64,000 nucleotides of DNA from an uncultured Planctomycetales bacterium (GTDB lineage Bacteria; Omnitrophota; Gorgyraeia; Gygaellales; Profunditerraquicolaceae): positions 221,812 through 285,811 of the forward strand of contig CAZJFL010000001.1 in assembly GCA_964545575.1 (NCBI GenBank). The letters run 5' to 3'. Shown here in pieces: positions 1 to 64,000 of this stretch. Made by a program: the position numbers and the translations under genes. Under the pieces are notes generated by a model that searched no databases, had not been told where the DNA came from, and worked only from the letters and a program-made list of their open reading frames with translations. Within the stretch, counting starts at the first letter, position 1. Every line of letters starts with the position of its first letter.

Positions 1-3000
1 GGCGGTCTGCCGGAGCATTGGCTGTCTCAAGGAAAAAGGTTTCACCCGTAGCCAGCGCCTGACAGGCAACCGGCAGCATCATATTTACCAACCTATCAAT
101 ATAATATTGCCTTCCCTGGTCTTTTGCCTTAGAATCCTTAAGATAGCCCTTGCTCCTCAAGAACTCCTCAATCATTTTCTTAAAACGCTGGTAGTCCATT
201 TTTTTCTTAATCTCCCTGATCTCATCACGTAGAGAGCTCAATTCCCCTGCCAGTTTATCCATCACTTCCTCCGGGACTTCTTCTCCCTGCTGGCTGCGCT
301 GGGTTGCCTCCTGATATTCATTCTCAGCCTTATCTACGGCAAGATTAAACTCGGCCAGTTGCTGCTTTAGATCTTCGGCTGACTCAGCCACGTCGAACCT
401 GCCCACATCATAATCCGCAAGCAGGCGATAGTGGAAAGGCAGGCGGCTACGCATACTGTCTACGCTCAGAGAGAAGTAGCGATGGCGTATTTCCGGGCGC
501 GCCTGCGGATTAATCTCATCATAGACATCGTAGTGGCGCTGCTCCAGGGCGAGCTTAAGAGCCGGCAGAATCTTGATAATATTTTCTGGCAAATCCTTCT
601 GGCGAGGCTCGTCATTAATCATGACTAATAAATCCTCGGCGATCTTCTCCCTATTCACTTCTTGTGCCTGGTCACGGGGCAGGCGCAAAACTTTAAAACC
701 GCATTTGACCTCATGGCCGTAAAGATGGTTCAAGAGGATAAAGATTGAATTAAAAGTCCTTTCCAGGCGCGGCAGGGTCAAGGACGCGGAATCAAAGCCT
801 AAGATGAACAGGATTATTGCCCCGACTAAGTCATTAGACGGCCAGTCCCCGCAGAAGCCGAGGGAAATCTTTTTCTTGGGGTCTTGGATCTTTTGATTAT
901 GCCGTTTGATCTCATTTGCCAGCGTAGCTAACATACGGATGAGCGAGATAGCCCGGTTATTCAAACTATCAAACCACGGCGCTCCCATCATCATCCTGTC
1001 CACGGCTTTGGTAAATTGTAATTGGTCGTTGCCTCCGACAGAACCAAACCCTATGCCTACTTCAATGAACGGCCGTATTTCAAAGGCCTGCGGCGTTTCA
1101 TTCATTATCCCTATTGTGATTTTATTTCTGTCTAAACCGACCTCATCAATGACCTGCAGAAGATCCACGAATTGTTGCGGGTCATACACTACCGGCGCAA
1201 AAATCCTGATCAGATAGCGATTTTTATCTACCAACGCCTTTATCGCCCGTAACTGCATCTTTAGGATCCGCTTATCATCAAGCATCATCCGGATGCCGCG
1301 GTATCCGGCCATGGGGTCGCGGTCTCTTACCACGCGGGAACCGGGCAGTTTCTCCAGCTCATCGCTCTTCCTGTCATCCAGGCGGCCAAAGAGGTACTTC
1401 TTGATCTGCTCGACAATTAAATATAAACAGAACTTATCTTGCTCTGCGGCGCGTTTATATAGCTGCTCGAATTTTTCCAGGTAATAGTGCGGGCCTTCCG
1501 GAACGGCTTCTGCGCCATAGGCGATGCCGGTCAATTGCGCCAAAAGCGTGCTTTGGTGTTCAAGGGCAGTCTGGCGGTAGGCTTTTTTATACATTTCTGC
1601 CAGCTGCATTGCTTCTTCCTGAAGCCGGGGATCGTTAATCTGCTGGGTCAATTTCATTAAGACCTCGGGCCAGACGCGGAATGTCTCGCTGATGCCTTCC
1701 AGGCCCCGGGAGAGTATCTGAATGTAGCGCTCTTCTGCCGATAACCAGCCCGAGGTAATCTTATCAAAAAACTCTATCAGCTTTCTGTCTTCCGATTTGT
1801 CCGGCTCATAGGGCTGATGCTCGGGATCATCCAGATAAGCCTTGTAGAATTCAAGGCCGGAGGTAATCTGCTCTTGGCTGCCGGCCTGCGCCGCCACAAT
1901 GCGCTTCTCTAATACGCGCAACTTCAGGTGCGCTAATTCGCTGTGCCGGGCAAGAGCCATACCCAGCCAAGCCCGCTCTTGCGCAGTCAGCCCTTCGTTA
2001 TCCATTTTCTTCAACATATTAAGATAGCGGTAATTATCGTAGCAGATAGCGCCTTCAGGGGCACAGCCAATCAGGCCGAGGAGCTGTTCAAAGCGCACCA
2101 GCCCGGAAACATAGGCATCAGGGCGCTTGCCTCCAAAGGGGCGCGCCTTTTGCGCGGTATCCGGTGCGTTGATATTTAAACCCAGCCTAAAACCTTCGGG
2201 CAATAAAGGCAATTCATCTACATTAAAATCATTACCCACGGGCTTGAGCTTATCCGAATGGTCTCCGGCAAAAATAATGCCTTTGCTGGCTACTACCGTG
2301 ACTTTACGGCCGTTATATAATTTGTTCAGGTCCGGAAGGCCGGTAATCACCACCCATCCGAACTCCGTCGCCATAATCGCGGTATGCGACTGCCTGCCGC
2401 CGACTAAAGTGACAATTGCCTTTGCCTGATGCATCGCCACATCCATATCCGGAGTCCCTTCTTCGGTAACCATAATTCTTCCCTTGACCTTATACCAATC
2501 CTGCGGCTTATTCTTAAAAGTCCAGATCACCCGTCCGGCTTCAGCGCCTTCACTGTGGAAGGTAGGGTCTTCATAAAGTACTAAACCTTGCTGACGCAAC
2601 ATCTCAACGTCCTTCTCGCTCATATCCTTGTATCTTAAGAAAATAACCGCGGGGTTCTTCTGGTTCCGGCTTGTCTCAGGCCTGACCTGCGTATAAACGA
2701 AGACATACTGATAGCGCGGATTTCCGGCATGGTCGCGGGCAATGCCGTCCGGTTGATTCGGGTCTTGGACATAGAGCGGCCTTGTCTCCCGGTCGCGCCT
2801 GATCACTAACCCACCTTCATAATCCTGATACATATCAAAGTATTCATACATCGTGCGGGCTACCAGGCCCATCTGGCCCAAAAGCTCCCAGTCAGTAGTT
2901 ACCGGCTTTCCTTTCAGCGCCTGGGGAAACTTTAAGGTAATCAGGCCGGCATCCTTCTCTTCACCATCTTGATTTTCCGTAGCGCCCAAGACATTAGGCA

Positions 3001-6000
3001 CCTGCCACGCCTGCCTGTCTTCGGAAATCTGATACTGCCTTAACTCTCCGTTAAAACGCACAAAGGCATTATCCGTGGTGGCTTTATTAGCCACAATGGC
3101 ATTAGCCGCACCCTCCACTAAACTCAAGTCTAATTCCGGCATACCGGTGTTGCGGTTGACGCCAAAGCCGACACAGCCGATATCAAAAATCCCCATCTGC
3201 TGGAACACCGAGCTCATTTTCACATTATCATCATAGATAGGAAACGGCGGGACTTGCTTCAGGCGGTAATCAATACTGCGGAAGTTAAATAATGAACGCT
3301 GATTCGCCAGCCACTCTTTGACAAATAGGTCTATTTCATCCTCTGTTACCGGCCCGATCACGGCATCCTGAAGCTTTAACTCTTCTACTAATGCCTTTAA
3401 TACCGCGTTCCAGGGTTCAACCGAAACACCCCATTTAGAGGCGTCGAGATAAAGAGAGATCTCCGCCGCTTTCATCGCCTCAACAATTATCTTTAATTTC
3501 CCCCAGGGGTCAGGCTGCTGAGCGAGTTTTGCTTCTGTGTCGGGGATATTAATCTTACGGTTGCCCAGAATCGCCAGCACCTTAAGGATCATCACAAAAA
3601 GCGAAGTATCCTGCCTGCCGGCAAAAGAAGCGGCTTCGCTATCTTCGCCCAGAGCAGAACTACGGATTGCCAGTATCAGGAGCCTCTCTGTAACCCCCAG
3701 GCGCTCCGCCATCTGCTTTAAACTTTCGCGCATCTCCTGAATTAAATCCGGGGCAATCTTGGCCTTACCCCATTCTAAATCTGCTTTGAACTTTTGGGAG
3801 CACTCGGTAAGCAAAATAAAGTACTGCTTGGTGTATTCCGGATCCTGTTTAGCTTCCTGGTCGCTGATTTGCTCTTTTGTTTTATTCTGCTGGTCGGCTA
3901 ATCTTTGTTTAGCCTGATCAATCAGGACGGGTAATTTTCTCTGGAGTTCTGCGGCAAGCGCTTTAAACTTCTCATCGTATCCGGGATTGGCAGCGATGAG
4001 CTTATCCGAAAAAGCCCTGCCGGCAGTAGCCAGGGCAGCCAAGGTTACGGCGCCCGGCGCATCCATCATCATCCCGGTATAGCAGGTCTTTCCGCCGAGT
4101 AAAGCAGCATCGCGGGCATCCACTTCATAGTCCCAGACAATGGTGCGGTCTTTAATTAAATCCTGATCCGCCAGATAATGGCCTTTCATCAGGAAGGTGG
4201 CTGTCCTGTCTTTATACTTATCAGCAGGGTCTTCTCCTTCGGGAGGGGCCTGATATTCATTGACTACGATCAGGCCGGGGTAATCACGGGCAATTGTCCT
4301 GAGCAACTTTTCTGCTGCTTCGGGCGTGAACGGCTCTCCTTCGGGAGTGCAGAGGGCAAAGAAACCGAACTCCCGGACTAATGCGTCTAAGGCTTGCCTG
4401 GCCTTAAATGAGCGGGTACGCTCCATCTGATCAATGAGCCATAATTTTTTCTCTGCGTCGGTGAGGAAGCGTTTTTCGCTGCGGATTTGCTGCCTGAGAT
4501 TAAAAAGTTTGATTGCATCTTCCAGGCGGTTCTGGTTGCCGGTGGCTTTACTTACCTGCGCGATACGGTTGACTACTACCTCTTGCTTCGCTATATCATC
4601 GGTTGAGGTATGCCTATCTCTTAAGTATAAGTCAGTTAAGATCCGAACAAAAAGCCCGGGCTTGACGCGCCTCATCCCTAAGCGCAACAGGTATTCCATA
4701 AAATCTAATTCGATGTAAGCAGTTTTTCTCCTTTTATCTACTGCGTAATGGCGTTCCCCTAATTTTCCGGAACGCACCAGGATGATCCGGGTATCTTTGA
4801 GAAGATCCGCCAAATATTGGAACTCTCCCTTACCTAAATAATGACGCAAGAAGTTGTAGGCTAAGGGTATGATCTTGGTGTAGCGCGGCAGGTCTAATCT
4901 GCCGACAGGAACATCTTCCATATTAGGGAAGCGGGTGGCATTGATAAGCAGGAGATCGCCGTTTCCTAAGACAAAGGCGCCGTTGTATTTAGTCAGCCAC
5001 AGCCTTCTTCTGCCCCTCTGGTATAAACCGACTTCATCGCGGGCAATCAGTTCGTCTAAAGTTGCCTTATCAAAGCGAAGCGTTAATGATTTTTTACGCC
5101 GCGGGTCAAAAGCCTGCACCGCTATTTTCCAGACGTTTTTGGCAGCGGGTTTCTGCTGGAGCGCTTTTGCTTGCCGTCCTTTTGCGGCAGCTAAACCTAG
5201 GGCCATCCCGTATTCCCTATCAAGCTGCACCTCAAAGATGGAGCACGCTCCGATAAAAGGAGTTAATTCATCGGGGTGAGCATAGAAATAATCTTCGCTT
5301 AATTTGCGGGCTGACTGACAGTCTAACTTTCGGAGGAGGGCGCCTTCGATATCATGGCGGATAATATCATCAATCATCCTTTGGTAGGCTTTACCTTCGG
5401 AAGAATTTTTATCCGGCGGAGCGCGGGCAGCCACACTTTCTAAGACCGCAACTTTTCCCAGCACGGTCTCGGTATCGGCAGCCCTTCCGCTGGCTGTCCT
5501 GGTTACCACCTCAACGTATTTAGCCTTGTCGCCAAAGTAACTCTTAAACTGATCCAGTTTATCTCTGGCCATCTCAACCGCTTCGCCGGTATAAGTAGAA
5601 GGATGCGGATGGCGGGCGCTGCCGGGCTTTCCAGCCTTGAACCAGCTACGGGCATACCCGCTTATCTTCTTTATTATTTGCTCAGGCAAAGTAGGGTTGA
5701 AGTTCGTCAGATACGCAGAATATACTATTGTGGCAATACCGATAATTAGGCCAATGATTTTAATCAAAGGATGGGGATGCGCTATTTTAGGCAGAAGTTT
5801 AGCGAAGAATATATTTTCCTCTAAGGCTGTAACTACTACGAAGAAGGCAGTAGCCAGGCCGATTCTTTGTTTGGCTGCGCCGATGGCTGCGCGCATAGCT
5901 AGAGCCGGGTCCGCATATCTGGCTTTAGATTCAGGAAGATAGGCCTTGGTCAGGGCCTTGGTGCCGTAAGGCCCGAGGCTGTAGAAGGCAATCGAGGCCA

Positions 6001-9000
6001 AAACTAGCAGCCCGACAACCCAGAAAGGCTTAATCATCGGGGCAAGAGAAAAATCAAATATAGCATTGCCTTTGGCAAGAAGCTTGCCCGGCAGATATAC
6101 AGTCAAAACTACTAACACCATGTGCCAGAAACACGACCCCACCACCACCATCAGCGGATCCGGCCTTGGTCCGCGTTCTAATTTAGCGGCGGTAGGGCTG
6201 GGATTTCCGCCGCGCTGCATCAGGTGGCCCATAAAGATGATGTAGAGGCCGTAGAATAAATCTACCCCTATCAAACAGGCATAGGCGATGGCAGTGGCTT
6301 TGTTAAGGTGAATTAAAGATGTCAGGTATTGCCACGCCAATTTATGCTGCATAGCAGCGAGGGTAGTGATAATACCGATTAAGGTCATGCTGTTTAAGGC
6401 CCACTGGTTGATATTGGTGGGCATCAGCTTAAGGTACTTGGCGAGCCTGCCGAAAGGCTTAGCCTCATCTAGAGCAAGCTTAGGCTTACCTGCTTCAACT
6501 GCCACCTTTTTACTGCCTCCTCTGATGATTATCTCCGTAATAATCATCGCCGGTATATTGACCGCGGCAATAAAGAGAGAAACTTCGGTGTTAGTAACGC
6601 CGGTAGTCTTTACGGCAAAGAAGGCTAAAGAAAGGGCGATCAGCGGCTGCAATGCCCCTACGATAAGCCATGCCAGCCAGTCGCGCTTCCACTCTGCGTT
6701 AAAAGAGTTATCTAATTTTAAAGCTTTATATATCACGTAAGGTACGAATCCTACCGCCAGCCACGCCCTTCTCGCCCCTTTATACTTAAACAAATCTTGC
6801 CTTAAATCTTTGAGGAAGGTGGGATTTTCTTTAGCTATGGCTTTGATAAGCTTGTAAAATAGGTAGCTGATCCCCGGCACTTCAGTCCAGGCGCTTCTCC
6901 AGAAGCAGATCCGCATAAAGTGATAAATAGTGACTAGCGGAGCGCCCATAGGCAGCTTCTTGGGGAGCAGGAAGACCTGGCATAAGCTGGAAGCGATGGT
7001 GAGGATAAAGAATACGGTCAGGGAATGTTTATCTTCGAAGATATTTTTGAGGAAGGACTTTATTGTTGTAACAATAGGTGGCGCGTTGGTCTGTTTGGAC
7101 CAGAAGAATAAGGCGATGAAAGCAAAAGCAGAAATCCCCAAGGCACGGCCTAAACCAAACGCAGGAACAGTAAAACCTCCCTGCTGCCCGGCAAAGAGCG
7201 GGGCGATGAAGGCGCTGGCGAGGAAGCCGATGATCGCGATACTGAAGAACTTTGGATAAGTATTGGTGCGCCTGGGATAAACTGGCGAAGGTCTAGCTTG
7301 CGGATTCTCTGTGATAACGTCACCTTGACTATGCATATCCTGATTTAATTTTACCCGATGATTCCTGCGGCCTAAGTATTTGCCTAAGGGGCCGGCAAAA
7401 ATTAAGCCTGCTATCGATAAAACGCCGAATACAATACTCAATGTAATAGGTAATGGCGAATTAGCTGACTTGGCAGTGGTTTCTGCACCTAATGGTACTC
7501 CTTGCGCCAGAGCAGGCAGAAGCAGCATGGCGGCGATGGCGATGCAGGCGAGGGTGTGGCGGTTTGTGCTAGTCGGCGCCTGGGCCACAGCAGAAGGCAC
7601 TTCTCTATCAATCGCATCCAATTTCAGTAAAACCCTGGCAATTCCCTCCCTGACCCCCGGCCTAGAACTATTTGTCTGAATATGTGCCAGGACCATACGA
7701 AAAGATGGACGATTAACGCACTGCCTATAAATAGTTACTAATAACTCTTCTGCCGTCGCTGCTACTTGGGGTTGGGAATCAGCTAAAGCACCGCCGGCTA
7801 TAGCCCCGATTGCGATTTTCATGTGTACAGGGGTAAAAGCGGCCATCTGCGGTATCAATGGCTTTAGCCTCTCGGCCGTGCGGAGGCTGCATTTCCCTAA
7901 TACACCCACGACTGCCTTAATTTCCCCGTCATTAACGAACTTGGCGCCTTGTACAATTAATCCTCCAGCTAAATCAGCGGTCTTTGCATCAAAGTCATTT
8001 TGTACATTTTGTAAAGCGTTAAGCAGAAGATTGATGGTATGGTGTGCCTCAGGCGGATTATTGTGCATGCGGCCTCTTAACTCTTTGCTCACTGCCTCCT
8101 GGTACGATAGATTACCCAGATAGCGTACTAACTCCGCCGAATTCATCGCGGATATATCGGATATCTTGGCTGAGCCTGATGGCGAAGAGGAACGGGGTTT
8201 TACTGGAGTAGGATGCAGCCTGGCCGGCGAGAGGCGGCGATAAAATATTCCCCCCACCATCAATCCTGCCAGCGGCAGCGAGCCGGCGGCTAGAGAGTGA
8301 TGGCCTAAGAGCCAGAACGCTGCCAGCGCCGCGGCGCCGAGGAGGGCTAAAATTATATACGGACCCGCGAAGATATCTTTGCGTTTTAAGGCATGGCGGC
8401 GGTAAATTGTTACAGCAAGGAAAACTACTCCGGCGACAACTGCGCCAATACTTATCCAGAATATTATATTGGCAATAGTTAAGGCAGTGCTGAACGGCCC
8501 ACCTAGACTGCCCCAGCCATCTGATGCTCTGTGTACGCCATCGATAATACCATTAGCCCCCTTGACAATATCGACTTTTTGAGTGAGGAATAAAACCGGC
8601 GCACCGGCAAAGAAGGCGGGGATAGCGCCTCTGATGCCATCCGGAAGTCTATCTATAATTAGCCTTAGTTGCTTTACTAGCCTAAAATATTCGGTCTTGT
8701 TTCTGGGTATTCCGTATTTTCCCGCGCCTTCTTCCTGACGGAATCCTAACTTGTATGCCTGCATGCTGCGTAAAATATCGTCTGCCTCTAAGATGCCTTT
8801 AATTGTATTTAGAGATAATACCTTGGCTCTCTTAAGAACAAAACTCCACATGCCCTCCTGGCCAAAATTGTCTGCTCCTAATAAGGTAACCGGCAAGACC
8901 TGCGTGGGTGACGGCGTCGCAGTAATCACCAGCATATCCCCTTCTTTCATTTCGCCTATCATCGTGGCATAGAAGTCAACGTGGGTGCCGTGCGTCCTTT

Positions 9001-52700: not shown

Positions 52701-55700
52701 TGCCAGCTTAAGATGCGCGGCGCGGATTTACCTCTTTCCAGGGCCACCGTAACCTCTTCGGCCACTCCGGACTTACTGATCATATCTTTTAATCTCCAGC
52801 TCCAGTTGGTGATGGAGTCAAAGTAGTAAGCGCTCTTGGCGGTGGATAAATCTCTGACGGCGGCCAATCCCTGCTGATAATCCGCATCCGCAACGATGCC
52901 GAACTGTTTATTGGCGTAGACGTTAAGGAGAATATCCAGCTGGTTGAGGCGGCTGGCGAAATATTCGTAATTTACCCTGCGGCAGGCAGCTTCATCCGGA
53001 TAGATCGGATGGCTGGTCTCGTGGAGGATTAAATCTAAGAGGGCGATAAAGAAGGCGTAAGAATCCTCATTTGAGAGATTAAACGGAGGCGCGCGGATAG
53101 GCAGACGTTTATCTGAGATAATCTGCGGCGCAATATATTCGCCCATGGACTGGCCTCTTCTATCCTGATAGACAATAAGGTCTAAAGTAGAAACGGGCAA
53201 GCCCAAAACCTTGATGATTTCATTAAGATATAAGCTGAAATTTGCCGTGTCTTTAGTATCAACTTCGGCTTTTTCACCGGGGATGTCAGCAAGGCGAGTG
53301 GGAGACTTATCTTCGTCATCTCTAGTGCCTGTTATCCACCAAGGGTCATTTGGAGTATAATTTATTGCTGGCGGTATTTCTTCTTCTGAGCCTTTATCCT
53401 CTCTAGAAAATCTATAATTTGGACACTGCTCACAACCATCCCGATAAACATCGTTAGCCAAAGTACAAGTCAATGGACTTAATCCATCTCTGCAATGCAC
53501 CCTCTCTTCATTATTTCTACGGACTTCTGTATCATTTTCAACAGTTTGTTTTAAGGTACGTCGCCAAATAGTAATAGACCGGATAGCCAAGAATAAACCA
53601 ACTGCAATACCTACAACAACAAATATCCCTCCTATAATAGGCATAACTCCGATATTCTTAACGACGCCGGAACAGCCAGTTAAAAATAGCGTTGCGGTAA
53701 AAATAGAAATCCAGATCAGAATAGATTTTAACGTTGTCGAAGAATCACTACTCCCCTTTGTTCCAGCTGGCTTCTCACGATTTACTTCGCTATCTGATTT
53801 AGGAATAAATTTCTCGGCTACTTTTGCCATCCCGTCACCCAAAACCTTCTTTATATAACCTTGCCCCAGCTCTGTAGTGCCCTTTTCTACTTGTTTATAG
53901 GTCTTTTCGGCTAGTTCATAAAGCTGTTGCGCATCACTATCTCTCCCATCTAATTTAAATCTCTGCGCCATCTCAAAGAGAATTCTACTAAGAGCGAAAT
54001 CTAAATCCATTTTAAGCCCGGATACAAAATCTTTTATACTCTTAAACTTAAAATTATAAGCTTGGTCGTTCTTAAATCCACCCTTATCAATACTATCCGC
54101 TCTTACTAGTCTCGTAGCATAGTTAGCCAAAACTCGTCTCATATGATAAAACTTATTTATCTCCAGCTCTTCAGCTATTCTGGCGCGATAGGCCTCAGGT
54201 ATCTGTTGAATCTGTTTTTTCACGTAAGCATTCAGATTTAACTTAATGATTGGCTTTAATACTAAGGTCGTTGCCAAGAAATCCCAGAAGATAAAATAAG
54301 GCATGGCTAATAAACCGTGCAATATTGCTTTGCTATATTGTTCACCCTTTAAGCCGGCAATAACTAGCGCGGCGGCAAATATACTGGCAATAATCAAACC
54401 GAACGGCGCAGGGATAGGGATAAGGAAATTGTGGATGATGAATGCCAGGGCGCTTCCGCCAAAGATAATTCCGGGGATCCGCGGACGAGAATGCCCGTTC
54501 TTTAAGAACGGACCGAAGATATAGGCAAAAGGTAATACATAGAATAATAGCTGGGCTACGACAGCATAAGGATGGAAAGGAGCAAAAATGACGATTCCCA
54601 GAAGTATCACTCCCCAGGTGATAGAGGGCCTAAAAATTTCATATAATTCTTTAAAAGATTGAGAAGTAAGGATTGCGCCTTTTGCCCCTTTACTGAACTC
54701 TCCGCTCACCCCCTCCAAGGCATCGCGCATCTTCTTTTCCTGGATGGCGTTCAGAGGTAAGAAGGTGAAGATAAGACTCCAGAATCTTTGTCTATAGGCG
54801 GCGTATCCCTTCCAGAATCCTAGCTTGCTGGTCAAAGTCCTGATGCCGCCGGCGGTAATGGACTGGGAAAGGATAAAATACAGGCCGATAAAGAATAAAG
54901 GAAGCGCCAGATATGAGAACGGTGAGAAGGAAAGGAATAAGGCAAAGATGAATATTAATTCATTGTAACGCGGGATAATCGGCTCATTGAAATAATGGTC
55001 ATTGTTCAAGAAAAGCGTCAGTTTCTGCGTCCAATGCAGATTCTCAGCTCTTAGCATCTGCTGATAGTGGACAGATAATGCATCATCAAGCACTAAACCG
55101 CCAAACCTGTCTACGAAATTAGGCATCCCGAAGTTCTCTTTTTCCCTGGCTCTTCCTAAGATCATCAGCGGACTATATTCGGTATAGTAGCCGGCCTTAG
55201 AAAATTCGTTGCCCATCGCAGAATCCTCAATATTAGACATATAGACGGCATACGACCTCATTACCGACGCCCGGATAATCATCGGGCCATAACAGCTGGT
55301 GGTACCGATTCTTGGCTCAACAGCAAGCATCCTGGTATTCCAGTTATTCTCGGCTACGCTCTGGTCTTTGTTAGTGGCGGTCATGCCTTCATCGGCAACC
55401 TGCAGATTAGTCAAAACCACGCCCAGTTTAGGATTATTAGTAAATTTGTAGGCAATAAAAGGCAGGCAGAAAGCATCCGCGGGGAACAAGGTATGCTCCC
55501 AGTCAGTATTGAAGATAACGCCGTCTAAATCATTGATAAACTTAAAGGCAAAACCCCAGGAGTTGCCCTTAGCCAACCACGCTGCCCCGGCAGGATTGAC
55601 ATCGGTGAAATCAGCGATGGCCATCGGCTTACGCTCGTTCGGGTTGTTCGGATTAAGCGCCCAAGGACCGCCACATTCATCATATAATTTCTGATGCAAC

Positions 55701-58700
55701 ACATCGCCGCCGACCCTGGACTTCTGCCACCAGAAACTGAAAACACCACGGTAATATCTGTCTATATTCGCTTTTACTTTCTCGTCGTCGCCGCCATATA
55801 CATGTCTTAATAATATTCCGTATGCCAAAGTGCCGGCATTTTGCACAAAATTAATGGTTTTATAAATGTTATCTACCCGGTAGACTATCCACTGGGTAAT
55901 AATCATATTGGAAAGCTCTTTTATATGCTGTTCTTGCAGGCCGAGTGCGCCGGCAATTACTTTTTTAGTATTTTCAAAGGAAAGCTGCGAGTCGGTAAGG
56001 GTTATTAAAATGTCCTTTAAGTCGCCTGCGGATAGGCCGGTCAACAACCTGTCGACCTCTTCTGCTGTAAGGTCGGCAAAGAACAGGTTGACCGTTTCCT
56101 CATCTATGCCGCCTTCCCTACCTCCCAATAGATATCTTAAATAGGCCTCCCAATCTCCGGCAAACGCTTCTTTAATCAGCCTGAATGTACTCTTAATCGC
56201 CTTCGGATCATCGAGATTCTTTTCATTTACAAAGGCATCTTGCAGAAAACCAGTGATTTTAGCGACCACCGGTAGGAACTTGGTAGATGGCCCTTCGCCA
56301 TTTAAGTATGCTGCATCGTTGGACAGAATTTGTTCTTTGACCTTTTCAAAAATATGCACTCTGCGGCCACCCTCTTCTACATACCAATTTAGATAAATCC
56401 TTGCCTGATTGAAGAACTCGACGATTTTCTTTCTAGCCCGGGGATTACGTAATTGCGGTAATATATAGGAGTCGCCGTCTATAAAATCCATCATGGCCTT
56501 TGCCTCTGCAGTAGTAATAAGCCGATAGTAAAGCAGGCCTTTTTCTATGACTAGGACTTTAAAGACATCCCTTAGGTAGCCATTTTGTCTGATGCTATCT
56601 ATTACATCTGTCTGGCGATTCAGCTTTTCGTAAGCCTTGGCGCTATCCCATTCTTCATTTAGTTCAATACTTAACCGTTTTGCCTCTACCATCAGGCTCC
56701 ACCAGCTGCGCATTGCCACCCTGATATTTATAAAATAAATCAATATGGCAACAGGCCAGCCTATTGGAGGGAGAACTCCGATTATATAAAAGAGACTGGC
56801 AGCTCCTAAAAGGAAATTAGAACCGATCCACCAATTAAAATATTTCTTAAAGAAATCGGTCTTTTCTTTAATTACCGCAGAATTTGTATCGCCATTAAAT
56901 TTATTCCTATAAAGATAGATTGTATCCAGTGCCTTTGTCCAATACGCAAAATGAAACTTAAGATATGGCAGTATTCTCCATGTCTCTAATATCGTAAGCG
57001 CATATATAAAACCTACAAAGAGTAATCCCGAAAGCGGAATAGTACCTATTAAAGATACAAAAGTTATAGTTAAACCAATAGCAGCCAATGCAGTAATAAC
57101 TTTTCGTATGCCCTTACGCATATACGGATATACCGGCTGCTTTAATCCTTTTTCCTGATATTTCTGCTTAAGATAATCTAGCCATTGTTTAATAATCTCT
57201 TCGATGACTTGCGCCTTCTTTACGGAGGATAAACTAAGCAGGCCTTTACCGATATCCGGTAATAATCTTTCCTGGACGGGGCAGTTGAGCTGATATTTGT
57301 TAAAGAAAGCAAAGCCTGTTATCGGGTCTCTTTTCTCTTCGGCGCAAAACTCTAATAAACGCCTTAATTCCCTATCCGTAAACATAAATGTATCTTTAGT
57401 CATCTTTTTACGCCCCGGGCTATAATAGTCCTGCCAAGTGCCAAAATCCTGGGCCAGCATTGCTAAGAAGAAACATGCTACCGGTTCGATGATTAATTTC
57501 TCCAATTCAGTAAGCTCTATGTCTAATTTATTCTTATAGGCATCTTCTACTTTATCTTTACCTAATCTATCCTGCCGCTCAGAAACCTCTACTTTGAACT
57601 TCTTCTTTAACTCTTCCAGGCCGCCCTGCTGTTCGCCTTCCGCATATAACCTGATAAGATAATAGGTAAAAGGCCCGACGAGGTCAATCTTGGAGACGAT
57701 ACGGGAAATCCTGTAGAATTTATCTTCCAGCCATTCTCTCTTGAAGACTTCAAAGGCTTTAGCCGGCTCTCTTTGCGTATGAATATTTCTTATGAGAGGT
57801 TCTATCTCCTTAATTGCTTCGTTGGGATCAAAATGTTTAGTAACTGGCAACTTATTCATCTTCATATATCTTATTTTTATATAGCCTTTATAAATTAATT
57901 TAAATGGCAGGCTGGAAAGCCACATCAGGAAGTTGATAGGTTTACCTGGCCATGTATAGAACCAATCATACCACTTCTTTTTTGTTTTAAAATTAGTTAA
58001 GGAAAGGCAGCGGGTCACCCATAGCAATAAAGCAGCCAATGAAGTCCCGAGCAGAAACAATCCTAAACCAATAACTGTAACCATAGGCTTAAACGTTCCC
58101 CTCTCTTGTGGCTTAAGGATAAAGTTATAAATCCAATTATTCTTGGAATGCTCCCGGAAGTGGATCTTAAAAAACTCTCTTATACTTCCCTTGTAATCCT
58201 TGCGGAATATCGGCCTGAATCTGCTGGTATGTTCTTTTATTGTAGCGCCTAGGAACATCAGGGTGCCATTACGCAATTGAGGTTGCTCTGCCTTAGCCTC
58301 CGCAAGAATCCGTATCCTCGGCGTATTATCGGTTAACTGATTGCCATCGACGAAGGTATTAATACCCCTATTTATTCCGGAGAGCATATTTCTGCTTACA
58401 TCGCTACTCCAAACCCACATAAACCCTGGCTTATCTTTTAGCAAGATGACGTAATGCTTAAAGTATGGCTCTTCTGACGCTGGACCAAAAATACCTAAAT
58501 ATTCTCTTTTTACTTCGTTACTAATTGTAGGCAACCCGTAGGCATCATAATATGCCCTGATGGTTTTATCTCTCAGGGGTTTACCGCGGTGAAGCTGAGA
58601 ATACAGCCTTCCGTCCAGCCTTAGAACCATTTGTTTTATGGCTTTATTATTCTCCCTGTTATCTTGCACGTCGTAAATTATTCTGTTCTCTGCGTCAAAT

Positions 58701-61700
58701 CTTAAGTTGCCGGTTCTTGCTCTGGCCTTCTTATTTTTGTAATATTTAGTATCGTCATGGCCCGGAACATAGTTGTAGGTAATGCCTGCTCTGGGAATGC
58801 CGACGTTGAACGGCCCGGCTTCAGCGATAGCAAGCATGCTCTTATTTTCCCCATCGGTATAACTAAAAATGGTATAGAAGGAAGGGTTCACGCCAAAACC
58901 ATCTGCGCCAATACCGGTATGCCAATCAAGCTGAGCGATAACATAGCCCAGGTTGTTATTAATTTCTTCCCTTGTCCTTAAGACATGGAGATCTATGGCG
59001 TCATTAGCAACGAGAGAGTCTAATTGCTCATGGGTATAGGTGCCACCGGATAAAACCGGCTGCCCCTGAGCATCGGTAATGATATTACCCTCTGCGTCTC
59101 TGACAAAAACTAATCCTTCTTTAGTGCGATGGTGTACATTCCCAAAGGCATCTACGCCTGTAGTCTGGGTGATATCAAAAGGCGTCTCGCTGCCGCTACT
59201 GTCGGCAAGAACTATAGTGGTGGCAGACATATCTGGAATACCGTATTGCGCATAGTTGCCATTAAAGAACTGGTAGCTCTTAAGTTCTCCCGCAGGCACC
59301 ACATACTCTCCGCTTGAATCTTGGCGCACAGTCCATTTGCTTAGCAGCCTTCCCTGCTCATCCCTTACTTCCTGCTTATCCTGAGTAATCAGCTTATCTT
59401 TGCCGGTAGCGGCATTCTTACCAAAGAACTCGTCGTGCCTGAGGTAAATAATCCTCATCCAGCCTTTACCCATCTCCAGCTTCTCCAACCCAGACTTGCT
59501 GATGGCGCCGCTGCCTGCGTTTAATAATTGCGGTTGTATATCCTTAAACACCTTGCCTGCTAATAACTGCGGTTGGCCTTTGGTATCCAAGACATAGATC
59601 TGATCCAACGAATCGTTCAGATAACGCGTGCCGTCCTTGGCAAAAAGTAAACGCAAGTCATTGTTATACCAGCCATAAGTATAAGTCTCCGCCGGTACCT
59701 CCAAATGGGAAAGCTGGGCTGCGCTATAGCTATTATGATTAAAACGGAAATCTTTATAGGTAAAGACTTCTTCTGTGCCCCTCTTGAACTCTTTACTCAA
59801 CTGCTCAATAACTACAAGGTCCTGCTGTGCTCTTAATCTAGCTAACAGGGCGTGGAGGTTGTCTCTGGTGGCATACTTATCCTTGCCCAGATACTGGCCG
59901 TTATATTCTCCCCTGAACCTGCGCTGTAAAATACCGTACTGGTCTCTCTCTTCGACAAAGAAATTGTTATTAGCTACGTCGAATGCCAGCCACTGGTCGC
60001 GGCCTAAGGAAACAGCAAGGCTTAAGATTTCATTAGCGGGCTTGCCATTTATATACGGATAATCCACACTTCCGACCTTGGTGCCGTTAGCATCATAGAT
60101 AATCGCTCTTATTTTACCGACGGCATCGTTAATGGAAACGAGCTCCCGCCCGGTCTGGTTATCAAATACCGAGCGCCATCTTTTTACTATCGCGCCGCTA
60201 TCATCCAGGGCCTGTATTTGCGCCGTAGTGTAGCAGGTATCATCATTTTCTAAATCGTATAAACTATTATTGAATAAGCTGTCGCCGGTCTGCCTCATCC
60301 ATTCTTTTATACCCTCTACTTCGGGATTCGGATATTGTCTTTCTGTTGGCCCGGACTGAGACTGAAATATTTTCTTGCCTACCCTATAGCCTTGCTCATT
60401 CCATTCGTAGGTCTCGCGCACAATCGGATCGCCCGCAGCATTCACCTTATGGATAACATTGTCTTCAATGATGTAGCGTTGCTTTCCTGCGGCGGTAGAG
60501 AGCTCATCCTGAACCACTTTACCGAGCGTATCCAGGCTCTGGGTGCGGGTTAAGCGCCCTCCAGAAACGAAGGGATCATTTACCTGCCAAGAAACCGCCC
60601 AGCCAATGTTTCCATCAATATTATCCGGAGATAGCCCTGCGCCATCAAGCGTGACAAACGCGCCGTTATCGGCAAAATAGTAACGCCGGGCAAGAACCTC
60701 TCTGCCGGTGTAATTGTGCTGCTGGCGGATATACTCAGGCAGAGCCGCAGCTCTTTCGTCTAAATCAACATTAGCCTCGCCTTCTACGCGATAAGTAATG
60801 TATTGCGGAATAGTTAATATGGTACCATTCTCGATTTTTACGGTATCATCCTCAATTTTTCTGGTGATGTAGCGCGGGCGGCTGTAGAACTGCGCCACCT
60901 CTTCTCCGCTAGAGGTATCCACGCCAAAGGTTCTTTCGAGCGCTCCCGCTACAGAGGTGCGCTGAGATACCACCACAGTCCTCTCGCCGCCATTAGGCAA
61001 CGGCAGAGTCACCTGATGCACGGCATCCACATAGGCAATAGGCGCGTTTTCCTCGAATAAGCCGTTGTCTTCCAGTACATAGATAGTGGAATGCAGAAGG
61101 CTGTTGATTACTTCTATCTCGTGATCCGCTAAATATACCCGCTGAATAACCCGGCCATCGGCATCTAATTTAATAATCTGGGTTAGTCCGGCGGTTAATT
61201 CTTCTTTATTAGGAATTAAATCTCCGGGTTTGATGAAATAGCCGTAGTCTTTATCTTTGAGCACCACGAGGTAATTTTCTGCCTGCAGTCTAGCTAAGTA
61301 GGCGCGGCCGTCGCCGTTTAATTCCATCACCGCATCTTTGCCGTTAAATCCGGGCAGGCCTTTGACCCGCAGCACATTGTATTTACCTTCGCGGGTGGTA
61401 GTCATGTGATAAACCTTGCCGCTATCCTGGCTGCTTAATCCCTGATTAGAATATAATTGCGCAAGGGTGGCGGTGTCAGTGACAGCGGTGCGATAACCTT
61501 GATGCGTATCCGAGCCGTACATCCAGCCGATGACTTTCTTGGCGCTCTCAGGTAAAGCAGTCCTTGCAATATCCTCTCCCTGTACGGTATAGGTATTCCC
61601 TTCTTTAACCCAGTAGAATTGATCCCCTGCCAGATAAAGATTATTCTGCAGGAAAGCTAAATCTGCCTCCAGCATCGGCATGCCGGATCTGACAATCGTA

Positions 61701-64000
61701 GGATATGCCGAGTTGATTCCGAAACGGATGGCCATATAATCTTTGGGGATAAGCAGAGTCTTACCTTCAGGCCCGGAAATCTTACCCCGGTAAACCCTGC
61801 CGTCTATGACAAAATCCGCAAAATATCCGTCCTTATTTTTAATAATACCTTCGGCGGTTAATTGATCGGCATTAAATGCACTTAGCGGAACAACATAAGA
61901 AAGGTCTTCTATTGTAAGCTCTACAGGAAGGATTGAATCTAAGGGATTGGCAGTAGCATAAACGCCTGCCAAGCGAATCGTCCATTGGTTAGCTACCGAG
62001 CCCCAGGAGAGCGCTGCGCTATCAAGAGTAATTGGCCTGTTGATGGAAACGCTCTCAGGCGTGTTGCTGGCCGGAGGAGCAGTAGTCATCCGCGGATACA
62101 TTTCTTCAAACGGCTTCACCGGGTCAGCTGCGGTAATACCTCTTAAATCCACCTGTTTCTGCTGGCCTTTTATCCTTAATAACGGCCCTGTTGTCAAGTC
62201 GGTACTTAAGCGAGGATTACCTTCTTTTGTCCAGCCAAGATTAGCATCGATTCTGGCAGAAGCATCCGGATCAAGCGGTGCCGGAGTTTCTAATCCTAAG
62301 GATAAATTCTTGGTGCCGTATTTGCCGTTCACATCGCCGCTTACCTCTAACTTCATCTCACTGCCGGGAATGGCAACCTCGACGTTGCCCTGGGCAACTA
62401 CGTCCTTGCCGCCAGCATAGAGGGCTTGCGCGCTGGCAGTAACCGGGCCCACGGGCAGCTTTGCTTCTGCTCCGGCATAAGGATAGAAGGTTCTTTCTGC
62501 CCACTTAGAGAGGTCGACTTCCGGCTGGAAGACTAACTTCCACATCCTGCCCTGTTCATCCTGTTTGCCGAAAGATAAACTTCCGCGCAGGAGTTTCTCA
62601 TTGACTACGATATTCACCGGGACGTATCTAGTGCTGTTATCTAAATCGTTATGTACATAAACCGAATCATTAAACTGCAAATTGCTTAACGCCGCTCCTG
62701 CGCCTGCTTCCCAGAAGAATCCGGAGGCGTATTCCTGGCGTAAATGCAGATCATGCACCTGAATCTGGTTGTTTTGGTCTAAGCCCACATCCGCATACCC
62801 GGCATAAGCCAGAGAGGTTTTACCTTTAGAGAAAGCGAAGTTATCGAATAATATAATCCTGTGCTGCTTAAACTCCCGGTATTCAGTTAATGTGTCCGGC
62901 CCGGTTTGCTGATAGGTATACTCGTCAGCTACCAAAAGACCGAAAAGATTCAGCGCATTTTCTCCTAAAGGAGTCCGGATGCCGACGCCTCTCTCGGTAG
63001 TGGCAGAGGTTCCTTGGCTATATTGCCCGGAGTTGCGGTAAAGGTCAACCTGTGAACTGCCGAGCCCGAATAAGCTGGTTACGGCAGCAGAATTACCGAG
63101 TATCCCGTTCTGTAAGAAGGCGCCTAACGAACCTTGGGCGTCCTGAGCATCTACTATCTGCCGCAGTTCTCCGGCGGTATATGCCGGCAGTTCAGGAAAG
63201 ATTTTCTTTAACTCTTGGCTTTGCCGGCTCAGCGCGTCTGCCTGCTCGTAAAGCGCTTCTCTCTCCCGCTGGATGCGCATAGAATAATCTGCGATATCGG
63301 CAGTTAAGTATAAGCTGCGGCTTCTAGTATCAATCAGGCGGAACAATACATCTATCGCGCCTTTGATTGTACTATCATGCCACTTAGTATAAAGGATAGC
63401 CTTGTCCAAAGCCGCTTGCGTTTCCTGCGCATAATCAAGGGCTTTCTGATATTCCCGCTCAAACTTATCCGGGTCACTGGGATCGGCAAATCCTCGTTCG
63501 ATGTAAATATAGTGGGCGTAGCTGGTGGTATCCTGCCAATTAGTTTTTAACCACTGCATAAACTCAAAGTTGCCGCGGGCAAAATCTACCTGAGTCCTGA
63601 AATAATCTAATCCTGCCGGGCTATCGTAGGCCAAGAAATCCCTGAAGGCTGCCAATTTATCCCAGTTATTGCGGCTCTCCTGGAAGTCATTCCAGAGTTT
63701 TTCTCTCTCCGCTCTACCCTTATAAAACATCTGCAGGTTATCTTCGTAATACTGAAGCATTCTCTCCCGTTCGCCTACTTCCTCGCGCCACTCTAAAATG
63801 GTATTGGTATAAGTCCAGAGAAGGTCTAAATGCTGCGGATCATGCCGGAAGTAATATGCTCTCCTTTCCGGAGTCCAGAAAGGATCTTCTTTAGAAGGAT
63901 GCTGTTGGAAAGCGGTTAAGAAAATATCTAAATCCTGAATATCCACATCACCGTCGCGGTCTAAATCGTTTAACATCGGGTCTGCCGGATTAAGCATCGC
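49535..64000 (-). CDS. upstream (N-terminal-side) segment of a giant multidomain ORF; 5' end beyond the window; ends at in-frame TGA at 49535-49537
   Basis: Minus frame with codon low coordinates = 2 mod 3 is open from 63998 downward. Hand translation at 63997 gives AMLNPADPMLNDLDRDGDVD, and motifs at 58050, 53009, 52355 and 50774 sit in the same frame. The track lists no complete minus ORF in this frame, consistent with an edge-partial ORF. Plus-strand ORFs over this span are short and compositionally antisense-like. Confidence 0.8.
50000..51150 (-). other. sugar-1-phosphate nucleotidylyltransferase-like domain plus left-handed beta-helix hexapeptide repeats
   Basis: Verified HSNLLVILAGGEGKRNYPVTLSSGRGN (50774-50797, GGxGxR-type motif). 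Downstream translation IVGPDVKLGKEVVVEDGVIILGKSRIDKGTVRKGTVIIDSVI has hexapeptide-repeat character. Confidence 0.5.
51450..52420 (-). other. ASKHA-fold sugar kinase-like domain (ROK/glucokinase-like)
   Basis: verified DYSKGNFVALDVGGTSIK (phosphate-1 DxGGT motif at 52355-52372). Confidence 0.5.
53009..53023 (-). other. HExxH zinc-metallopeptidase-like motif (HETSH)
   Basis: hand translation AFFIALLDLILHETSHP. Confidence 0.35.
53430..53760 (-). other. membrane anchor followed by a Cys-rich segment
   Basis: Translation ...ILIWISIFTATLFLTGCSGVV... then CRDGLSPLTCTLANDVYRDGCEQCPNYRF. Not re-verified base by base. Confidence 0.3.
54300..55000 (-). other. transmembrane cluster 2
   Basis: Several ~20-residue hydrophobic segments in the translation (for example ...LALPLFFIGLYFILSQ..., ...GVILLGIVIFAPF...). 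This part of the translation was not re-verified base by base. Confidence 0.4.
56750..58100 (-). other. transmembrane cluster 1
   Basis: Verified hydrophobic helix KPMVTVIGLGLFLLGTSLAA at 58020-58090, with further hydrophobic stretches downstream. A large hydrophilic loop domain of unknown function follows (~55050-56700). Confidence 0.5.
59000..62900 (-). other. beta-rich region with YD/RHS-like repeat motifs (tentative)
   Basis: Verified segments IRAIIYDANGTKVGSVDYPYINGKPANE (60030-60115) and LDADGRVIQRVYLADHE (61139-61168) resemble the YxYDxxGRL repeat consensus. No enzymatic motifs were seen. Confidence 0.3.
63926..63967 (-). other. acidic DxDxDG-type (EF-hand/dockerin-like) calcium-binding-like loop
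   Basis: hand translation DLDRDGDVDIQDLD. Confidence 0.35.

Follow-up and report, generated by a model that had tools for sequence, protein, structure and literature searches.

A 64-kb stretch of DNA inside one giant gene encodes a chain of divergent sugar-metabolism enzyme domains of probable Omnitrophota type

A single reading frame fills the window

The 64-kb stretch of DNA analysed here (positions 1..64000, called the window throughout) is an inner part of a single, genuine giant protein-coding gene on the minus strand, with the start and stop of the gene both outside the window. We consider it probable that the product is a giant multi-pass membrane megaprotein of the Omnitrophota type, in which enzymes facing the cytoplasm would form a tethered sugar metabolon, and that the gene evolves by exchange of cassettes at a short junction motif. 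The initial annotation of this DNA had placed the whole window in one minus-strand frame, broken only by a small island at 49.4-49.6 kb. Translation of the reverse complement in the frame from plus 64000 ran through 21,333 sense codons without a TAA, TAG or TGA, a stronger result than had been claimed. Further in-frame stops beyond 49436-49537 had been proposed as the point to check, and none was found; the island itself does not exist, as 49,436-49,537 reads through in frame inside a Nudix domain (aa 4793-4874; plus 49,379-49,624, minus strand). The remaining five frames contain 712-1,637 stops each, and base composition predicts approximately 1,196 stops in the giant frame (log10 P of zero stops approximately -535). 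The codon-position signal agreed with the stop-free translation: GC content followed the order GC1>GC3>GC2, an excess of RNY (purine-any base-pyrimidine) codons was seen in frame 0 only, and both were uniform across 22 of 22 consecutive 3-kb segments. As had been expected, the frame runs off both ends of the window, so 21,333 amino acids (aa) is a lower bound on the product. Codon 1 is plus 63998-64000, and amino acid i occupies plus 64000-3i+1 to 64000-3(i-1); all aa positions below are positions in this window translation, not in the full-length protein, the N-terminus of which lies upstream of the window.

Giant genes of this kind strain gene callers and annotation pipelines. Here the list of open reading frames (ORFs) missed completely a gene spanning all 64 kb, as had been pointed out beforehand, since list-type ORF callers require two bounding stops. 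No tRNA genes or Rfam families were found in the window, which leaves no sign of introns or ribozymes. Four plus-strand ORFs are at least 150 aa long (184-222 aa), and none of them had a Pfam match. A related JGI contig, Ga0598272_0003294 (hereafter L002), codes in the same direction along its whole 13.4 kb, which indicates that the giant frame did not arise as a quirk of assembly in one sequence. Composition is uneven within the single ORF, with GC content ranging from 0.40 to 0.51 along the window, and GC3 at 0.55-0.60 for aa 16001-18000 and 19001-21333 and 0.42-0.50 in the remainder, which is consistent with cassettes of mosaic origin. The stretches that stand apart in composition are plus 1-7000 and 10000-16000, set against 44000-50000 and 56000-58000.

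About two dozen divergent enzymes are encoded in one chain

A Pfam scan of the product, as the initial annotation had suggested, was run together with NCBIfam on 1,000-aa pieces and on pieces offset by 500 aa (E<=0.01). Approximately 25 distinct families were found, each in at most two copies, those present twice being CofD, RPE, PRK and APH-like. The content centres on sugar-phosphate and nucleotide-sugar metabolism and amounts to about two dozen enzymes. Every domain scores far below the NCBIfam equivalog cut-offs, which shows that the domains are divergent. The earlier description of the window as a long chain of distinct metabolic-enzyme domains thus holds for a large part of it, where the domains are mostly single-copy and without tandem repeats; it does not hold for approximately 45% of the window (aa 1-3940, 14400-17300 and 17550-20040), in which Pfam, NCBIfam and PDB sequence searches found no recognisable domain.

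Active-site motifs are intact in many of these domains. The HAD phosphatase retains DMDET, PGM retains all four of its motifs (SSHNP, DGDADR, GEQSGH and RASGTEP), and RmlD retains GASGFLG and YGRIK. The Nudix motif REIKEE, the M54 archaemetzincin motif HEVGHLIGG, the Fic motif HPFSDGNGRTGR and the GGRQSH motif of the mobile phospho-His domain of the phosphoenolpyruvate (PEP) synthase are likewise intact, and the NDP-sugar nucleotidyl-transferase-like domain carries LAGGEGKR.

All features lie on the minus strand and are given here from N- to C-terminus. An orphan region without recognisable domain in Pfam, NCBIfam or PDB sequence scans (aa 1-1971; plus 58088..64000) is followed by transmembrane (TM) clusters 1 and 2, located by hydropathy (aa 1972-3473; plus 53582..58087), which comprise approximately 11 candidate helices separated by soluble loops, again without recognisable domain. 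Except where noted, the enzyme domains that follow were assigned by Pfam and NCBIfam. A ROK sugar kinase (aa 3944-4228), an NDP-sugar pyrophosphorylase-like domain (aa ~4396-4685) and the Nudix domain occupy plus 49379..52171. The next block (aa 5535-7906; plus 40283..47398) contains a first CofD/YvcK-like domain (aa 5535-5762), a TM hairpin (aa 6542-6683), a second CofD/YvcK-like domain (aa 6710-7076), a HAD-IIB phosphatase (aa 7160-7391) and PGM/PMM domains I-IV (aa 7456-7906). The domains of a variable cassette come next (aa 8171-9118; plus 36647..39490): ribulose-phosphate 3-epimerase (RPE) 1 (aa 8171-8392), an APH-like kinase (aa 8422-8754) and a GatZ/KbaZ-like domain (aa 8763-9118). The block at aa 9216-11811 (plus 28568..36355) begins with the archaemetzincin M54 (aa 9216-9383) and a SIS-type PGI (aa 9406-9814), and continues with PRK/Udk-like kinase 1 (aa 10116-10329), RPE 2 (aa 10361-10570), a second APH-like domain (aa 10805-11016), the RmlD reductase (aa 11023-11288), a cupin-type GPI (aa 11356-11487) and PRK/Udk-like kinase 2 (aa 11634-11811).

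Pfam, NCBIfam and hydropathy together place TPR repeats (aa 12626-12768), an ARMT1-like damage-control phosphatase (aa 13455-13725), TM cluster 3 (aa 13768-14209, including an HEFGH motif) and Fic (aa 14254-14359) in the block at aa 12626-14359 (plus 20924..26125). TM clusters 4-6 (aa 14437-14816, 15580-16059 and 18505-19432; approximately 24 helices by hydropathy) lie within plus 5705..20692 (aa 14437-19432), and are separated by helix-rich soluble blocks without recognisable domain; sequence scans located an enolase-C-like barrel fragment (aa 17318-17533) in the same interval. The last feature is a PEP synthase/pyruvate-phosphate-dikinase-like module (aa 20047-21080; plus 761..3862), consisting of PPDK_N, the mobile phospho-His domain and PEP-utilizers_C, which was identified with Pfam, NCBIfam and a PDB sequence search. 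Five HExxH motifs occur in the window (aa 3660, 5158, 6655, 9328 and 13818), of which only the one at aa 9328 is within a recognised metalloprotease domain (M54). The HEFGH at aa 13818, inside a TM cluster, may be an intramembrane (M50-like) protease site.

PDB and NCBIfam searches of the domain-less regions returned nothing beyond enolase, Fic and PEP synthase. Single-sequence AlphaFold2 prediction of aa 321-1000 gave an unusable model, with a pLDDT (predicted local distance difference test) of 33; for aa 18490-19450 the model was likewise too poor (pLDDT 45), and a Foldseek search against PDB with this model returned generic helical-repeat matches only, none of them at E<=0.001. A word-indexed protein search returned ordinary PGM-type proteins or nothing, and as it missed two homologues present in the same collection (P0002 and P0003, described below), its negatives are uninformative.

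Candidate membrane helices are clustered and the N-terminal region is nearly free of cysteine

Hydropathy identified approximately 45 candidate TM helices in approximately 8 clusters, which is a heuristic count. Segments with a mean Kyte-Doolittle value >=2.0 numbered 32, against 8.3 +/- 3.2 in shuffled sequences, and they were clustered. Lysine and arginine are more abundant on the enzyme side of the helices that flank the main enzyme block. The helix at aa 3455-3473 has one such residue on its left and four on its right, and the hairpins at 6542/6563 and 14169/14191 have 2/0/3 and 3/0/6.

The orphan region at aa 1-1971 has a composition of its own. It contains one cysteine in 1,971 residues (0.05%), compared with 0.44-1.3% in the other soluble blocks and an ordinary 0.75-1.07% in the enzyme blocks, and its content of Asn+Gln+Ser+Thr is 21.9%, compared with 14-19% in most other blocks. 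It is apparently beta-rich and soluble, and at aa 12 it carries one dockerin/EF-hand-like loop, DLDRDGDVDIQD. No homologue of this region was found in domain, PDB or word-indexed protein searches, the last of which we judged uninformative. Because cysteine is nearly absent and a dockerin/EF-hand-like loop is present, this region is probably outside the cytoplasm.

The product is non-repetitive, with only weak and old internal paralogy. TRF found a single tandem array of 42 nt, which is a doubled copy of the junction motif described below, and a BLAST search of the product against itself returned only four weak paralogous pairs (23-28% identity). Two stretches, aa 15833-16790 and aa 16928-17871 (within plus 10388-16504), are old duplicates of one module of approximately 1,080 aa. 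The matching segments are 15833-16000 with 16928-17077 and 16501-16790 with 17575-17871, at 23-27% identity, and an enolase-C-like score is retained by the second copy alone.

Relatives of the central enzyme block

An exhaustive HMMER search with aa 7151-8350 as the query returned three informative matches (P0002-P0004) above a background of ordinary PGMs at approximately 37% identity. P0002, the best named match, is MDO8488993.1, annotated as '2-phospho-L-lactate transferase CofD family protein, partial', from the Candidatus Omnitrophota metagenome-assembled genome GCA_030647935.1 (contig JAUSIU010000095.1). It is collinear with aa 6710-7954 (CofD, HAD-IIB and PGM/PMM) at 39% identity over 1,290 aa, and fills its 5.9-kb contig (L003). 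The ORF of MDO8488993.1 follows a small GIY-YIG gene and opens shortly before CofD, which makes the block N-terminal there, whereas the same CofD-HAD-PGM block is 6,700 aa deep in the window. Both proteins have the short motif 'SFDTAF..E.R.G' at module starts. This second motif follows module boundaries at aa 7940 and 11836 of the window and at aa 57 and 1332 of MDO8488993.1. After the PGM domain the two diverge completely. This collinear relative and the architecture of the gene are the basis for our assignment of the window to an uncultivated bacterium of the Omnitrophota, which we regard as probable.

P0003 is encoded on L002, which is 86% identical to the window at the DNA level over 6.5 kb; the region of the window compared with this contig was aa 7604-13985 (plus 22042-41190). 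P0004 is a 501-aa PGM fragment on a 1.5-kb JGI contig, with 57% identity to the window PGM over approximately 317 aa. The stand-alone proteins nearest to the window PGM come from scattered taxa (Halobacteriota, Thermodesulfobacteriota and Gammaproteobacteria). Scans of IMG/VR with two alignments found ordinary PGMs only. An origin from a phage or plasmid was rejected, as megablast against phages and plasmids found no near match.

Breakpoints between related giant genes coincide with a short junction motif

The peptide G-S-V-D-N-G-G(-S) is the sole recurrent peptide and the sole multi-copy repeat in the window. A motif scan located approximately 11 copies from aa 5979 to aa 14136 (plus 21569..46066, minus strand), each between Pfam domains. 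The copies are at aa 5979, 7932, 9146/9152 (degenerate), 10588 with 10594, 11294, 11611 with 11617, 11828, 12416, 12785 with 12791, and 14136 (an SRDNG variant), and no copy lies in aa 1-5978 or 14150-21333. At the DNA level, an identical 20-mer, GGCTCGGTGGACAACGGCGG on the coding strand, is present in five copies on the minus strand (plus 26736-26755, 28500-28519, 29151-29170, 30102-30121 and 40188-40207), with variants at plus 21581-21596, 25608-25651, 29133-29152, 32202-32242, 36528-36565 and 46047-46066 on the same strand. Three copies beyond the five identical ones match with at most three mismatches, where none is expected by chance. The junction is written in minority codons (TCG 9%, GAC 30% and AAC 34%), and for this peptide such a choice of codons has a probability of approximately 4e-4 per copy. 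Five identical copies in minority codons argue for conservation at the nucleotide level.

The same junction element is present in L002. At four junctions, the identity between the window and L002 falls from 80-89% to 24-31% exactly at the motif, and all 4 of the 4 sharp breakpoints examined, among the five blocks that the two sequences share, are on the junction motif. One window cassette (aa 7941-9149; 3.6 kb, encoding RPE, APH-like and GatZ) is flanked by two direct copies of the motif and is absent in L002, which has a single copy at this site. Beyond aa 11301, and again ahead of aa 12789, the window and L002 have different cassettes, and those private to L002 encode HATPase_c, HAD and PPDK_N. 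The divergence of the shared blocks also varies (71-86% nucleotide identity). The location of the breakpoints at a short conserved repeat points to in-frame gain, loss and replacement of cassettes by recombination. The motif is absent at the equivalent junction of the Omnitrophota homologue MDO8488993.1, which lacks the GSVDNGG insertion. Exact matches to the 20-mer were found in six JGI metagenome contigs, a single match in each; these contigs have 61-75% GC and no protein similarity to the window, and we regard the matches as due to chance. On present sequences, the element appears to be known from two sequences, the window and L002.

We tentatively propose that GGCTCGGTGGACAACGGCGG/GSVDNGG may be a dedicated module boundary and a site of short-homology recombination, and perhaps also a linker or processing site. 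If this were so, enzyme cassettes of 0.6-6 kb could be inserted, deleted or swapped without breaking the frame, and the giant gene would act like an in-frame 'integron' of metabolic domains that diversifies fast between close strains. Such a mosaic would provide a testable mechanism for fast change of domain content with the frame kept, and could account for giant proteins being 'poorly conserved' among close relatives. The motif is apparently new, since neither West-Roberts et al. 2023 (bioRxiv 10.1101/2023.11.21.568195) nor Nielsen & Lui 2026 (bioRxiv 10.64898/2026.06.07.730766) mentions linkers or recombination inside giant genes, and the latter does not describe a junction-centred mosaic.

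A membrane-tethered sugar metabolon is proposed

In the model that we favour, the region at aa 1-1971 would be outside the cytoplasm, and TM bundles and hairpins would then alternate with long soluble blocks along what is presumably translated as a single chain. The largest soluble block (aa ~3940-13730) would be a string of enzymes of hexose-phosphate, pentose-phosphate, nucleotide-sugar and PEP metabolism, predicted from their motifs to be catalytically intact. These enzyme blocks would face the cell's own cytoplasm as a membrane-tethered metabolon, and might channel sugars that enter at the membrane towards sugar phosphates and NDP-sugars. The ROK kinase is predicted to convert glucose to glucose 6-phosphate, the two kinds of PGI to convert this to fructose 6-phosphate, and PGM/PMM to convert glucose 6-phosphate or mannose 6-phosphate to the 1-phosphates. 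The nucleotidyl-transferase-like domain would activate these to NDP-sugars, RmlD would carry out a dTDP-rhamnose-type reduction, and Nudix would hydrolyse NDP-sugars or nucleotides. The two RPE domains would convert ribulose 5-phosphate to xylulose 5-phosphate, GatZ would perform tagatose- or fructose-bisphosphate chemistry, and ARMT1 would repair damaged sugar phosphates. The enolase-like domain and PEP synthase may represent the lower-glycolysis end, and CofD/YvcK, Fic and TPR are domains of a regulatory type. The gene itself would evolve by in-frame gain, loss or replacement of one- to four-domain cassettes at the 20-nt/GSVDNGG junction. Enzymes such as these need ATP or other NTPs, NAD(P)H or PEP, as well as phosphorylated substrates. 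These cofactor needs and the positive-inside flanks of the helices are our reasons for placing the enzyme blocks on the cytoplasmic side.

Several observations weigh against this model. At least three of the TM candidates fall within enzyme folds, so that helix parity, and hence topology, is not fixed by helix count, and the hairpin at 18512/18548 shows a charge pattern opposite to that of the helices flanking the main block. The source contig was not found by peptide-pattern scans of GTDB representatives, by an exact 43-mer search of IMG/VR or by a search of JGI metagenome contigs with the two window ends joined, and the taxon is assigned from one relative at 39% identity and from the architecture. 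In L002, a 43-nt deletion at approximately nt 3340 (compared with window plus ~34160-34205) shifts the frame and splits it into overlapping ORFs of 1,138 aa and >3,801 aa; the split reflects either a real division or decay of this gene or a mistake in assembly, and suggests that such giant genes can break. West-Roberts et al. 2023 predicted, with caveats, that glycolytic domains of giant proteins are extracellular. The SecA family had no match at E<=0.01 in overlapping 1,000-aa pieces across the window, and no C39 or S8 peptidase, glycosyltransferase or HEAT domain was found in the window; all of these are typical of full-length Omnitrophota giants, and each may lie outside the window.

Alternative explanations

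It might be argued that the window is not a functional single gene at all, and is instead an assembly chimera, a set of separate genes with lost stops or a decaying pseudogene. The frame-breaking 43-nt deletion in L002 and the 45% of the product without a detectable homologue could be cited for this. A pseudogene or chimera would not, however, remain open for 64 kb with no stop where more than a thousand are expected, nor keep a uniform codon-position bias and intact catalytic motifs, and we consider this explanation effectively refuted. An alternative genetic code was rejected together with the pseudogene reading, on the stop-free frame, the uniform coding signal and the domain content. A host other than Omnitrophota (another member of the PVC group, an Elusimicrobiota-like bacterium or a candidate phylum with giant genes) is unlikely, but is much less easily dismissed. 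The Omnitrophota match would then reflect shared cassettes or horizontal transfer, as could be suggested by the single named relative at 39% identity, the absence of the source genome from the GTDB species representatives and the taxonomic scatter of the stand-alone PGM relatives; giant proteins of >30,000 aa are also reported from other phyla. On the other side, the Omnitrophota match keeps the order of three domains with their linkers and has the 'SFDTAF..EAR.G' module-start motif in common with the window, and Omnitrophota are so far essentially the only described source of giants that are non-repetitive, TM-studded and rich in sugar enzymes.

Two further explanations concern the fate of the protein. 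The chain could be a polyprotein, a precursor that is cleaved at GSVDNGG to release single enzymes or small groups of them. The cut could be made by an embedded or upstream protease (M54, one of the other four HExxH sites, or a C39 double-glycine peptidase such as other Omnitrophota giants carry at the N-terminus) or through spontaneous Asn-Gly chemistry, with the motif conserved as a cleavage site. This would account for a motif that alone recurs in the 21,333 aa, is always between folded domains and ends in Gly-Gly, and the chain does contain a metalloprotease domain and several HExxH motifs. We nevertheless think it rather improbable. Nucleotide-level identity in rare codons points to homogenisation or recombination of DNA rather than to selection on the peptide alone, classical double-glycine leaders have hydrophobic -4/-7 positions that GSVDNGG does not, and the motif is missing from both ends of the window translation and from the junction of the Omnitrophota homologue. 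West-Roberts et al. 2023 did propose that C39 or S8 domains might cleave giant proteins, but the window has no C39 domain. Still less probable is that the enzyme string is an effector, exported either to the cell surface or into a host or prey cell that is attached, there to process or divert host sugars, as proposed for the Archaeovorins of the predatory Velamenicoccus. The kinases, the NTP-transferase, the NAD(P)H-dependent RmlD, PEP synthase and Fic need nucleotide cofactors, which are not available outside a cell. Cysteine content is normal in the enzyme blocks and positive-inside flanks place them in the cytoplasm; aa 1-1971 looks extracytoplasmic, which would suit an effector. Peptides of the giant protein of V. 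archaeovorus are up 3-fold in attached cells, and most annotated Archaeovorin domains were predicted to be extracellular by West-Roberts et al. 2023, who also warn that a missed TM helix could invert the localisation. Nielsen & Lui 2026 read their sugar-metabolism module as compatible with a cytoplasmic face.

Comparison with known giant proteins

The product can be compared with several known systems. Polyketide synthase (PKS) and nonribosomal peptide synthetase (NRPS) megasynthases are the usual explanation for very long bacterial ORFs, and resemble the window in being very long and multi-domain. This candidate was rejected, as Pfam and NCBIfam scans detected none of the KS, AT, ACP, C, A and T domains and no recurring modules; the window differs in encoding primary sugar metabolism and in spanning the membrane. 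A possible likeness to polymorphic toxins lies in the junction motif. In these toxins a short motif (VENN in CdiA, PxxxxDPxGL in Rhs) borders the conserved part and the exchangeable modules, and breakpoints fall there. No immunity genes or orphan cassettes were seen in the window, and while the toxins have one motif before one C-terminal tip, the window has approximately 11 copies between internal enzyme cassettes.

The closest likeness is to the giants of Omnitrophota. The initial annotation had set the window apart from published giant genes, including those for domain-rich membrane proteins; this contrast does not stand, since Omnitrophota giants with the same enzyme domains have been published and the window itself has approximately 45 candidate TM helices. 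ORFs of >20 kb are common in the ultra-small bacteria of the Omnitrophota (PMC10066038). The type protein of the Archaeovorins, that of V. archaeovorus LiM (Kizina et al. 2022, as cited in PMC10066038), is 39,678 aa long, with 42 TM helices predicted. In West-Roberts et al. 2023, the authors, in a set above 90,000 bp / 30,000 aa with proteins of up to 85,804 aa, described Omnitrophota 'Archaeovorins' with NUDIX, peptidases and TPR, with frequent pyruvate-phosphate-dikinase domains, and less commonly with PGI, PGM/PMM, aldolase, TIM and FBPase. Most of these also bear a divergent SecA_DEAD/SecA preprotein-binding domain. A C39 or S8 peptidase near a signal peptide in the N-terminal region is a further feature of the type, and the domains include glycosyltransferases, methyltransferases and glycoside hydrolases; neither of the last two was found in the window scans. 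By description, the window resembles the Archaeovorin type in its ORF of tens of kb, many TM helices and long unannotated stretches, and in its NUDIX, peptidase (here M54), TPR, PGM/PMM, PGI and PPDK-type domains, which are highly divergent from stand-alone enzymes. It adds RmlD, ARMT1, Fic, two CofD, two RPE, cupin GPI and GatZ.

Nielsen & Lui 2026 reported 5,761 proteins of >=10,000 aa, the longest of 147,155 aa (KR0015B_u4168876_114), and defined a 'multi-enzyme metabolic cluster' class that has a sugar-metabolism module (PGM, ROK and others) and NUDIX, TM helices in approximately 2% of residues and almost no tandem DNA repeats. The window shares with this class its many distinct families (at most two copies each) of which none is dominant, its ROK, PGM/PMM I-IV, HAD-IIB, NUDIX and kinase domains, the presence of TM helices, and a near absence of nucleotide tandem repeats (one 42-nt array here). 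It differs in a TM density of approximately 4% of residues, as estimated by the heuristic, against the 2% reported, and in having none of the response-regulator, radical-SAM and starch-synthase domains of the class.

On this comparison of sequence features, we regard the window gene as a partial, further case of the published 'Archaeovorin'/'multi-enzyme metabolic cluster' type and not as a new kind. It adds to the Omnitrophota giants a well-resolved, non-repetitive example in which about two dozen enzymes with intact active-site motifs are combined with membrane anchors. It also bears on the question of whether these giants are extracellular predation tools or cytoplasmic, membrane-tethered metabolons; in the cited literature on Omnitrophota giants, nearly half are predicted to be TM-only with cytoplasmic domains.

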